A stretch of DNA of 31,876 bases from Angustibacter luteus (lineage in GTDB: Bacteria > Actinomycetota > Actinomycetes > Actinomycetales > Angustibacteraceae), in the NCBI RefSeq assembly GCF_039541115.1, contig NZ_BAABFP010000005.1, positions 992,001 through 1,023,876 of the forward strand, in the 5' to 3' direction. Of the stretch, positions 29,358 to 31,814 are shown in pieces (position 1 is the stretch's first letter; every line of letters starts with the position of its first letter). The notes beneath the pieces were generated by a model. The model saw nothing but the letters and a program-made list of their open reading frames with translations, was not told the DNA's origin and ran no database searches. Made by a program: the position numbers and the translations under genes.

Positions 29358-29396
29358 ATGACCAAGCCCGTCCGTCCCACCGCGGCCACCGCATGA
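29358..29396 (+). other. 12-codon upstream ORF ([12 protein letters not shown]) overlapping the ppgK start
   Basis: GGAGG RBS 6 nt before ATG 29358; its TGA overlaps the ppgK ATG (ATGA). Confidence 0.45.
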
Positions 29397-30154
29397 GCCA
29401 CCACGCCGCGCTCGGCATCGACGTCGGTGGGTCCGGCATCAAGGGTGCTCCGGTCGACCTGCACACCGGTGAGCTGATGGCCGACCGGCTGCGGATCGAG
29501 ACGCCGCAGCCGGCCACGCCCCAGGCCGTGGCCGAGGTGGTGGGTGAGATCGCCCAGCACTTCGCGAAGCACCTCGGGGACGGCCCCGTGGGCGTCACCG
29601 TCCCCGGCGTGGTGACCCTGGGCGTGGTGCGCAGCGCCGCGAACATCGACACCACCTGGATCGGCACCGACGCCGACACGCTGATCGGGCAGCACGTCGG
29701 ACGCAGCGTGCACGTGGTCAACGACGCCGACGCCGCCGGGGTGGCCGAGGCCCGCTTCGGGGCGGCCCGGGACCAGCGCGGGCTGGTGCTCGTGACCACG
29801 CTGGGTACCGGGATCGGCACCGCACTGCTGCTGGACGGCAAGCTGGTGCCGAACAGCGAGCTCGGTCACCTGGAGATCGACGGCCACGACGCGGAGTCGA
29901 GGGCGGCGTCGTCCGCGCGGGAGAACGAGGACCTCAGCTGGGAGGAGTGGGCGGCGCGCCTGCAGCGGTACTACGGCGTCGTCGAGGACCTGCTCTGGCC
30001 GTCCCTGATCGTGGTCGGCGGCGGGGTCAGCAAGAAGGCGGACAAGTTCCTCCCGCTGCTGCACCTGCGCGCGCCCGTCGTGCCGGCGGCACTGCGGAAC
30101 GAGGCCGGGATCGTCGGCGCCGCGCTGCTCGCCGCCGACGAGCAGCAGGCCTAA
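29393..30154 (+). CDS. ppgK: polyphosphate glucokinase (ROK family)
   Basis: [51 protein letters not shown]. Confidence 0.93.
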
Positions 30155-30327
30155 CGGGCTCGCGCCACCGCCATGACCTTCTTGGGCACCTTCGGCATGA
30201 CCAGGAACACGCGACGGCTCTCCCGGTCGGCGTAGCCCAGGTCGGCCAGCCGCTTCAGGGTGACCGGGCACTTCTTGCAGCGCGGCTTGTCACGGCAGCA
30301 CTTCTTCTTCGCTTTGACCGTGGGCAC
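30151..30327 (-). CDS. 58-aa basic Cys-rich microprotein (CC-x5-CxxCP)
   Basis: Hand translation [58 protein letters not shown]; strong GC3 bias; stop overlaps the ppgK stop; TATTGT -10 6 nt before GTG. Confidence 0.82.
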
Positions 30328-30336
30328 CTGGCGACA

Positions 30337-30355
30337 ATAGGTAAGGCTTACCTAT
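30337..30355. promoter_or_regulatory. IdeR/DtxR/DmdR iron box
   Basis: ATAGGTAAGGCTTACCTAT, 17/19 match to TWAGGTWAGSCTWACCTWA; covers the spacer and part of the -10 of a TAGACA-18-TATTGT minus-strand promoter. Confidence 0.85.
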
Positions 30356-30372
30356 TCTGTCTAGTCGAGCGG

Positions 30373-30819
30373 TCAGGCCGCCTGCTCCTGCCCAGCCAGC
30401 CGGACGGCCAACCTCGCCAGCTCGGCGTCGTCGAGCATGGCCAGACGGGTGCGCACCACGTCCGGCGTGACGTCCAGCTGCTCGCACACCGCGTCGACGT
30501 CGTCCGGGTGGGCGACGAGCGCGTCGAGCAGGCACCCCAGGGACACCAGCCGCGCGGCCGCCCAGCGGTCAGCCGCCGCCTCGATGCGGCCGGCCAGCCA
30601 GGCGTCGTCCCCGTAGTCGTGGCAGGCCTCGTGCCCGAGGGCCACGTGCCCGAGCTCGTGCGCGAGGACGCAGCGGGTCTGGCGCTGGTCCAGGCGCTCG
30701 TCCACCAGGATCATCCGCTCGTCGGGGCACCACCAGCCCGCTCCCTCGGACAGGTGGCACCGGTGGACCCAGATGTCCGGATGGCGCAGCCGCAGCTCGG
30801 CCCAGGCCGACCAGCTCAC
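30373..30819 (-). CDS. ImmA/IrrE family Zn metallopeptidase
   Basis: RCVLAHELGHV (HExxH), IEAAADRWAA, C-terminal HTH-like CEQLDVTPDVVRTRL; GAGGTG RBS. Confidence 0.9.
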   Translation of the reverse strand: MSWSAWAELRLRHPDIWVHRCHLSEGAGWWCPDERMILVDERLDQRQTRCVLAHELGHVALGHEACHDYGDDAWLAGRIEAAADRWAAARLVSLGCLLDALVAHPDDVDAVCEQLDVTPDVVRTRLAMLDDAELARLAVRLAGQEQAA

Positions 30820-30849
30820 TGATCACCTCGCATGCGCCCGCCCCTGCCC

Positions 30850-31332
30850 TCAGCGCAGGGGGTCCTGCCCCTTGCGCACCCGCCGTGCCGTCGCGCCGGC
30901 CTGCCGCGAACCGGTCTGCGTCCCGCCCGACCGGCCGCCGCCCTTGGCCACGGGACGCAGTGACTCGATGGCGGTCCGGTCCTGACCCGCCGCACCCAGG
31001 ATGGCGTCGACCACCGACAGCACCGCGGCGCGCTCGGCCTTCGTCAAGGTCTCGGCGCGCTTGGGCAGGACGAACGGTCCGAGTGGGATGCGCTGGCCGG
31101 CAACCTCCAGGACGGTCGTCAACGGGACGTCGAGGGCCAGCGCCAGCCCCTCCGCGACCTCCGCCGAGATGGCCCCGGAGTGCTGCCCGAGCTTGAGCAG
31201 CCGCAAGGTCTCGTACGACACCTTGCCCTCCGAACGGGCGGCCGCCCGTCGGGTCGGCATCGGCCCTCGGTGGTCACCGAGCTCACGCAGCCTCCGCTCC
31301 ACGAGCTGCTGCAGGTCCCCCACGCGCTTCAC
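30850..31332 (-). CDS. phage-like XRE-type immunity repressor
   Basis: Degenerate HTH (RRAAARSEGKVSYETLRLL...EGLALALDVP) and C-terminal GPFVLPKRAETLTKAERAAVLSVV; lies between ImmA and a divergent Cro. Start uncertain (GTG 31323, 31332 or 31338). Confidence 0.72.
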   Translation of the reverse strand: MKRVGDLQQLVERRLRELGDHRGPMPTRRAAARSEGKVSYETLRLLKLGQHSGAISAEVAEGLALALDVPLTTVLEVAGQRIPLGPFVLPKRAETLTKAERAAVLSVVDAILGAAGQDRTAIESLRPVAKGGGRSGGTQTGSRQAGATARRVRKGQDPLR

Positions 31333-31479
31333 CGTCACCCCTTTCTGGTGCCGCCACGGGCGGGCAGGCACTCGCACCAGCTGATGGCCGGCGACACGAC
31401 ACGCCGGTGGCCTGACAACCAGAACGCGCATCGGGCGCGAAACGGACTGCCTGACCTGGGCCGAATCATCGGGGCCAGC

Positions 31480-31494
31480 TTGTCAGCCTGACAA
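31480..31494. promoter_or_regulatory. candidate repressor operator
   Basis: Perfect palindrome TTGTCAG-C-CTGACAA; extra half-sites CTGACAA (31412-31418) and TTGTCAG (31521-31527). Confidence 0.7.
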
Positions 31495-31583
31495 CTATTC
31501 TGCACTGTCCAGCGTGACGTTTGTCAGCAGTGGGGCAAAACGGGCACAATGCACGGGTGGGGACCACGAGGACAGGGGGCGGT

Positions 31584-31814
31584 ATGCAGGTCAAGGAAGG
31601 TGCGGCGATCCGACGCCGGCGGCAGCGGTTGGGGCTCAGCCAGCGAGACCTGGCGTACCTGTGCCGCCCGTGCTCGCAGACCACGATCTACCTGCTCGAG
31701 ACCGGACGCATGGCAACCCTGAGCAGCGGGCTGGCACTGCGGATCGCCAAGCGGCTGGACGTCGAGGTCGAGGTCCTGTTCGACGAGCGACCGGCCCGGG
31801 TCGGCGCGCGCTAG
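31584..31814 (+). CDS. Cro/XRE-family HTH regulator
   Basis: IRRRRQRLGLSQRDLA...SQTTIYLLETG...IAKRLDVEVEVLF; ATG 31584 after AGGGGG. Confidence 0.88.
   Translation: MQVKEGAAIRRRRQRLGLSQRDLAYLCRPCSQTTIYLLETGRMATLSSGLALRIAKRLDVEVEVLFDERPARVGAR

Follow-up and report, generated by a model that had tools for sequence, protein, structure and literature searches.

A conserved four-cysteine microprotein behind a predicted IdeR/DtxR box and its genomic tie to non-heme ferritin in Actinomycetota

We analyzed a 31,876-nucleotide stretch of the Angustibacter luteus genome (assembly GCF_039541115.1, contig NZ_BAABFP010000005.1, positions 992,001 to 1,023,876 of the forward strand; hereafter the window), focusing on a gene for a basic microprotein of 58 amino acids with four cysteines. 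X is used below as the working name for this protein and its family, and Ftn (gene ftn) stands for the non-heme, that is heme-free, ferritin. Judged by comparative genomics, X is a real and previously undescribed microprotein of the iron regulon with a strong genomic tie to Ftn. The interpretation that we favor, and hold tentatively, is that X may be an iron-sulfur (Fe-S) electron carrier that is induced by iron starvation and releases the iron of heme-free ferritin, a predicted analogue of the ferredoxin Bfd.

The X gene and its predicted iron-responsive promoter

The X gene (30151..30327, minus strand) is an open reading frame (ORF) with a GTG start, correctly recognized in an earlier note on this DNA; it has homologues and a strongly biased composition, with guanine-plus-cytosine (GC) fractions of 0.62, 0.47 and 0.91 at the first, second and third codon positions. 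The encoded protein has a mass of 6.7 kDa, an isoelectric point (pI) of 10.6 and 19 Lys and Arg among its 58 residues, compared with four Asp and Glu. Its motif C10-C11-x5-C17-x2-C20-P21 (30265..30300, minus strand) contains the predicted metal or Fe-S ligands. The ORF was earlier called unannotated, which holds insofar as all named homologues are "hypothetical" or "uncharacterized", although the sequence itself is already present in the ESM Atlas.

A promoter of leaderless layout was predicted from the sequence: a -35 hexamer TAGACA (30358..30363, minus strand) is separated by 18 nt from a -10 hexamer TATTGT (30334..30339, minus strand), which stands 6 nt ahead of the start codon and shares 4 nt with a perfect 21-bp palindrome (30336..30356; arms 30336-30345 and 30347-30356). 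Both the hexamer spacing and the palindrome had been described before and are borne out. The palindrome contains a 19-bp IdeR/DtxR-type box (30337-30355), for which the previously claimed 17 of 19 matches stand only against a degenerate consensus; against the strict consensus, as printed in passages of PMC1382209 and PMC10317159, 15 of 19 were counted by hand. The match exceeds chance: this box is one of eight sites with at most three mismatches in the 4.16-Mb genome, which also encodes a DtxR-family gene, and it ranks first outside the training set, at 23.6 bits, with a matrix made from the other seven sites. Three of those seven lie before genes for iron-binding lipoproteins, two sites at one gene and a single site at another; the rest are upstream of bfd-bfr, an EfeU-like permease, a siderophore-type decarboxylase and a second rpsD. 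The bfr assignment was confirmed by PF00210, and the remaining names were read by eye from translations.

The box is conserved before X homologues, as had been proposed for a check. It was found at 10 bits or more in 66 of 80 homologue loci versus 1 of 3769 control windows, with 46 boxes at the same distance, and with at most four mismatches in 60 of 80 loci versus 0 of 2339 control windows; about a third of the 80 loci are from Kribbella and hence non-independent. A TANNNT hexamer lies 6-8 nt ahead of an in-frame ATG or GTG in 67 of these loci, compared with 155 of 17664 control codons. The box is kept across many genera and differing flanking genes. In two families of genomes, here labeled f7 and f10, it occurs in 18 of 30 loci (versus 3 of 292 controls) and, at 12 bits or more, before 20 of the 21 X copies adjacent to ftn, respectively.

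X thus resembles a member of the IdeR/DtxR regulon in having a 19-bp box over the -10 element that is conserved before orthologues. A single box over the -10 element is the layout of repressed genes among known IdeR targets, according to passages of PMC10317159, and X is therefore expected to be induced in low iron. We infer that X is a conserved member of the IdeR regulon, with Fe-dependent repression predicted. A difference from the canonical regulon was observed in Thermoleophilia, where X copies appear to use a single-dimer half site rather than the full box: a 14-bp half site is present in 12 of 17 low-scoring loci (L018, L030, L059, L084 and L085 are among the half-site loci), with 13 occurrences in the whole 619 kb scanned. 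PMC10317159 lists among its open questions which genes IdeR controls in free-living actinomycetes and what half sites do; X would add to that regulon a conserved, overlooked member and supply natural half-site examples.

Several further sites were noted. In the 100 nt ahead of X, eleven Thermoleophilia loci (L010, L013, L015, L017, L019, L026, L029, L034, L048, L067 and L069) have a second palindrome, approximately CCGAC-N7-GTCGG by eye, which is a candidate for another operator or an RNA hairpin. Outside the window, the second rpsD-like gene (G000:C5:348740-349404) is preceded at 25 nt by an IdeR box without mismatches and is 47% identical to the copy at C2:938225-938752; iron-dependent ribosome remodeling is a possible meaning. 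At G000:C7:150652 (L134), the interval from ftn to the VIT1-like gene downstream of it contains a weaker box.

Conservation of X and its association with non-heme ferritin

Homologue searches yielded 48 close sequences, 108 cluster representatives and, for a second subtype, 478 proteins. They define an actinobacterial family of 55-90 amino acids with four invariant cysteines, in agreement with the expectation that homologues would conserve them: C10, C11, R16, C17 and C20 are invariant in 89 of 89 aligned rows, and in 50 of 50 rows spanning three subtypes, an invariance that is partly built in, since the rows were collected using the Cys motif. The three subtypes share K-x2-CC-x4-(R/K)-C-x2-CP followed by a helix. 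Subtype A, to which X of the window belongs, includes named records from Kribbella, Knoellia, Jiangella, Flexivirga and Paraconexibacter; subtype B has named records from Mycolicibacterium, Mycobacteroides, Corynebacterium and Rhodococcus; subtype C corresponds to family f10, which is probably Nocardioides-like. Neither Pfam nor NCBIfam matched X, and Pfam gave nothing at E<=1 for X or the 48 close homologues. Nine long matches examined as possible fusions were singletons with unrelated or frameshifted flanks, which is weak evidence that fusions are absent.

Searches of the published literature, with supplements and most subscription papers outside their scope, returned no description of the X family and none of X as an IdeR regulon member; paper supplements may list X homologues as iron-regulated hypothetical genes. 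An X homologue could not be mapped onto the C. diphtheriae DtxR table. A preprint on M. leprae interactions, considered as a possible description of the family, was rejected because it deals with other ferritin-fold proteins.

The distribution of X is patchy. In a sample of the phylum, 14 genuine matches were found in 401 genomes (16 candidates were scored per genome, and two of the 16 matches, G273 and G381, were dropped as spurious for having no start, box or family-like flank). X was found in 87 of 121 f7 genomes, counting one weak match (G454, E 1e-4), and, with a single-protein query, in 3 of 31 near relatives of the source genome.

This distribution follows that of Ftn, which profile scores (88-207 versus at most 40 bits) and a reading of the sequences separated from Bfr and Dps. 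Among the 120 of 121 f7 genomes that were classified, a family in which X and ftn are unlinked, both genes are present in 86, X alone in 1, Ftn alone in 19 and neither in 14. Since Bfr is retained in 8 of the 14 genomes with neither, and Ftn is the sole ferritin-family match in nine X-bearing genomes, the co-occurrence is specific to Ftn and not to Bfr. The contrast extends below the family level: genus g277 has three genomes with both genes and three with neither, and g283 one of each kind. Ftn was found in 63 of the 64 tested genomes (of 80) with close X homologues, the lone miss being a 5.3-Mb metagenome-assembled genome, with one Ftn match in two pieces and one partial. In the phylum sample, Ftn occurs in 12 of 14 X genomes compared with 137 of 401 overall, a tally that includes the unpublished G001, G048 and G316. 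In f10, a subtype C model detected X in all 5 Ftn-bearing genomes tested (of 29) and in none of the 10 tested that are without Ftn (of 32). DtxR/IdeR-family genes remain in all five tested genomes without X and Ftn. In the genus of the source genome, only two of six genomes (G000 and G403) carry X or ftn.

The second line of evidence is position. In 9 of the 80 homologue loci, all of them Thermoleophilia records, X and a ftn gene (PF00210) are immediate divergent neighbors, as they are in L084, L085 and L136. In f10, Ftn occurs in 29 of 61 genomes, a tally that includes the unpublished G557 and G560, both excluded from the adjacency count of 27. Among the 24 f10 ferritin neighborhoods retrieved, 21 have X as the immediate neighbor of ftn, 14 times divergently and 7 times in an X-ftn tandem with gaps of about 10-30 nt in six of the seven; with G548, G580 and G595 added, adjacency amounts to 24 of 27 published Ftn-bearing genomes. 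One further genome, G357, has X and ftn tail-to-tail. X was in none of 16 ferritin neighborhoods from families other than f10. The link between X and ftn thus persists through changes of orientation, and some functional coupling of X to Ftn is very probable.

A weaker form of association would be that X, as a small protein that buffers metal or carries Fe-S clusters, is a member of the IdeR regulon without direct action on ferritin, and that it has only its box and history in common with ftn. Two genes may stay divergent simply because they share a box, losses of iron-storage genes can be joint, and two genomes with X but no Ftn do exist. However, such co-regulation leaves unexplained both the tandem and tail-to-tail arrangements and the co-loss of unlinked genes from genomes in which DtxR/IdeR-family genes (in the five tested) and often Bfr remain, and we regard it as improbable.

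The proposed role of X in ferritin iron release

According to passages of PMC6315955, PMC7762939 and PMC8223512, Bfd accounts for iron release from heme-bearing bacterioferritin, while the physiological reductant of Ftn and the trigger of release are described as unclear. X is a specific candidate for this step, as a gene tied to ftn by position and co-loss and placed under an iron repressor. It was read as a Bfd-like carrier because the genetic pattern resembles that of Bfd and Bfr, because X is basic and Ftn acidic, and because vicinal cysteines hold a [2Fe-2S] cluster in FhuF. In the proposed mechanism, Fe-IdeR would shut the X promoter when iron is plentiful, and X would be made as iron falls. 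The protein would bind a [2Fe-2S]-type cluster via C10, C11, C17 and C20 and dock through its basic surface (pI 10.6) on the acidic ferritin (pI 4.3). Electrons passed from X to Ftn would reduce the ferric core, Fe2+ would be released, and repression would be restored. The general iron-sparing role suggested in the earlier note is less apt, as the link to non-heme ferritin points to iron mobilization instead. With slightly less confidence, we extend the proposal to the phylum: vicinal-Cys Fe-S microproteins with a 12-residue cluster loop could serve as the dedicated Ftn reductant throughout Actinomycetota and would then be a counterpart of Bfd that evolved independently.

The same observations would also fit a protein that binds ferritin without donating electrons. 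It would be a metal-sensing adaptor or gate, and under iron shortage it would block iron uptake, open pores or target Ftn for disassembly by the pupylation/ARC route. Adjacency, co-occurrence and charge suit such a protein equally well, and it requires no heme relay; moreover, iron release from C. glutamicum Ftn depends on pupylation, with the solubilization of the core described as unclear, in passages of PMC8223512. However, no pup or arc gene was linked to X in any neighborhood examined, and a comparison of 48 ferritins of X-bearing genomes with 21 of X-less genomes revealed no column that set them apart beyond lineage signal. An adaptor or gate is accordingly rated as rather unlikely. If true, either of these two leading mechanisms would provide a new dedicated partner for a bacterial ferritin, and CC-x5-C-x2-C, should it hold a cluster, would count as a new, minimal pattern of Fe-S ligands.

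Structure models bear on a further alternative. AlphaFold produced a small alpha/beta model for subtype A (predicted local distance difference test score, pLDDT, 84; predicted template modeling score, pTM, 0.61) and, for subtype B, a Cys loop with two helices, in which the hairpin of subtype A is missing. Foldseek gave no match at E<=0.001 for either model, the VIA wide structure search yielded a best Z of 3.5 and no significant fold match, and a sequence search of PDB gave only GAL4 (E 9.5); these blanks are not proof of a new fold. The weak Foldseek rows (E>=2) are mostly winged-helix proteins, whose hallmark is a three-helix helix-turn-helix core with a wing; in that region the X model has one helix and a hairpin. 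Together with the 19 basic residues and the long Lys-rich tails of some subtype C copies, these rows would suit a metal-stabilized nucleic-acid binder that serves as an iron-sparing regulator, either lowering ftn expression at the DNA or mRNA level in low iron or acting at the ribosome. X is, moreover, divergent from typA/bipA, encoding a translational GTPase, in most f7 loci (L099-L128), with the box between the two genes, and a regulator of ftn would track ftn as well. Nevertheless, the wing-like hairpin is missing from subtype B, no fold match is significant, and an X-ftn operon is no worse a fit for a partner protein; such a role is, in our estimate, quite unlikely.

Several observations weigh against X as a Ftn reductant. 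In f7, X faces typA rather than ftn, and 12 of the 30 loci are without a box, including four typA-divergent copies of 55 amino acids. In the source genome, X and ftn lie on different contigs, and a bfd-bfr pair exists as well; in its genus, bfd is likewise missing from the three tested genomes without X and Ftn, so this contrast is not Ftn-specific. Two genomes, G242 and G308, have X but no Ftn, with no box scored for the former and none seen by eye for the latter, and 125 of the 137 Ftn-bearing genomes in the phylum sample are without X. The Fisher values for co-occurrence ignore the kinship of genomes and thus overstate it, and the Ftn model derives from the ferritins of genomes that carry X. 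In the X-ftn tandems, a single box would govern both genes, which is awkward if iron represses X and induces ftn. Furthermore, the x5 loop of X is half the FhuF loop, the four cysteines could equally bind Zn, and Bfd uses heme as a relay, of which Ftn has none (passages of PMC7762939 and PMC6315955).

The genes flanking X in the window are local neighbors. The polyphosphate glucokinase gene ppgK (29393..30154, plus strand; NF045942 over cut-off) is convergent with X and outside its system; the two stop codons overlap at 30151-30154, a convergent pair that leaves no terminator space, and a polyphosphate glucokinase gene is within 4 kb of X in 15 of the 80 loci. Directly upstream is an IrrE/ImmA-like M78 metallopeptidase gene (30373..30819, minus strand; PF06114), seen in this position only in L001 among these loci. 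There, the peptidase frame crosses the IdeR box into the X start (L001:3583-4038 compared with window 30290-30535); in the window, an additional 70 or so bases end the peptidase ahead of the X promoter. The region 30373-31814, consisting of the peptidase gene, an unclassified 193-aa ORF and a divergent helix-turn-helix (HTH) gene, resembles an immunity switch; no integrase was seen by eye in the matching region of G403, and the contig stops 62 nt beyond 31814. The ImmA/HTH module and ppgK/map were rejected as X partners, as their association is not kept across lineages, and a cysteine-sensing attenuator peptide was rejected because the gene downstream of X here is convergent.

Comparison with FhuF, the pupylation route and Bfd

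In the FhuF ferric-siderophore reductase (PF11575), vicinal cysteines CC followed by CxxC in one loop bind [2Fe-2S], as described in bioRxiv 10.1101/2023.07.04.547673, and X also has vicinal CC and then CxxC in one loop. The spacer, however, is x5 in all aligned X homologues compared with x10 in FhuF, and X has 58 amino acids without a second domain. Neither X nor the 48 close homologues matched FhuF_C (PF11575) at E<=1, the domain was not found in the source genome, and no siderophore genes were nearby in the X loci examined. With no fold match in addition, the FhuF-like motif of the earlier note reduces to a loose CC..CxxC likeness. Its picture of an iron-repressed mini Fe-S protein survives as regards the conserved microprotein, the invariant cysteines and the box over a leaderless -10 element, but not as regards kinship with FhuF.

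The pupylation/ARC route of C. glutamicum likewise addresses how non-heme Ftn gives up its iron; it unfolds the ferritin cage, and the passage of PMC8223512 describing it includes no small Cys protein.

The closest parallel is the [2Fe-2S] ferredoxin Bfd (PF04324), likewise a small four-Cys protein with an IdeR box upstream, encoded in tandem with or divergently from an iron-storage gene: IdeR-regulated bfd is divergent from bfrA in passages of PMC5218490, and bfd-bfr forms a boxed tandem in the source genome. The proteins differ in spacing (C-x-C...C-x2-C in Bfd, CC-x5-C-x2-C in X), in pI (6.7 versus 10.6) and in partner, Bfd being tied to Bfr and X to heme-free Ftn. Pfam gave no Fer2_BFD (PF04324) match for X or its homologues, and hhalign aligned X with the source Bfd only in a CxxC-then-helix segment of 16 columns, with a probability of 1.6%, which is no evidence of homology. 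X shares with Bfd the placement next to an iron-storage gene and behind an iron-repressor box, with ftn replacing bfr, though not at the window's own locus. By analogy, and as far as passages of PMC5218490 and PMC7762939 describe Bfd and Bfr, the genetic pattern of X and ftn, that of a small, boxed, four-Cys protein that depends on the storage gene yet is dispensable to it, appears to match that of Bfd and Bfr.
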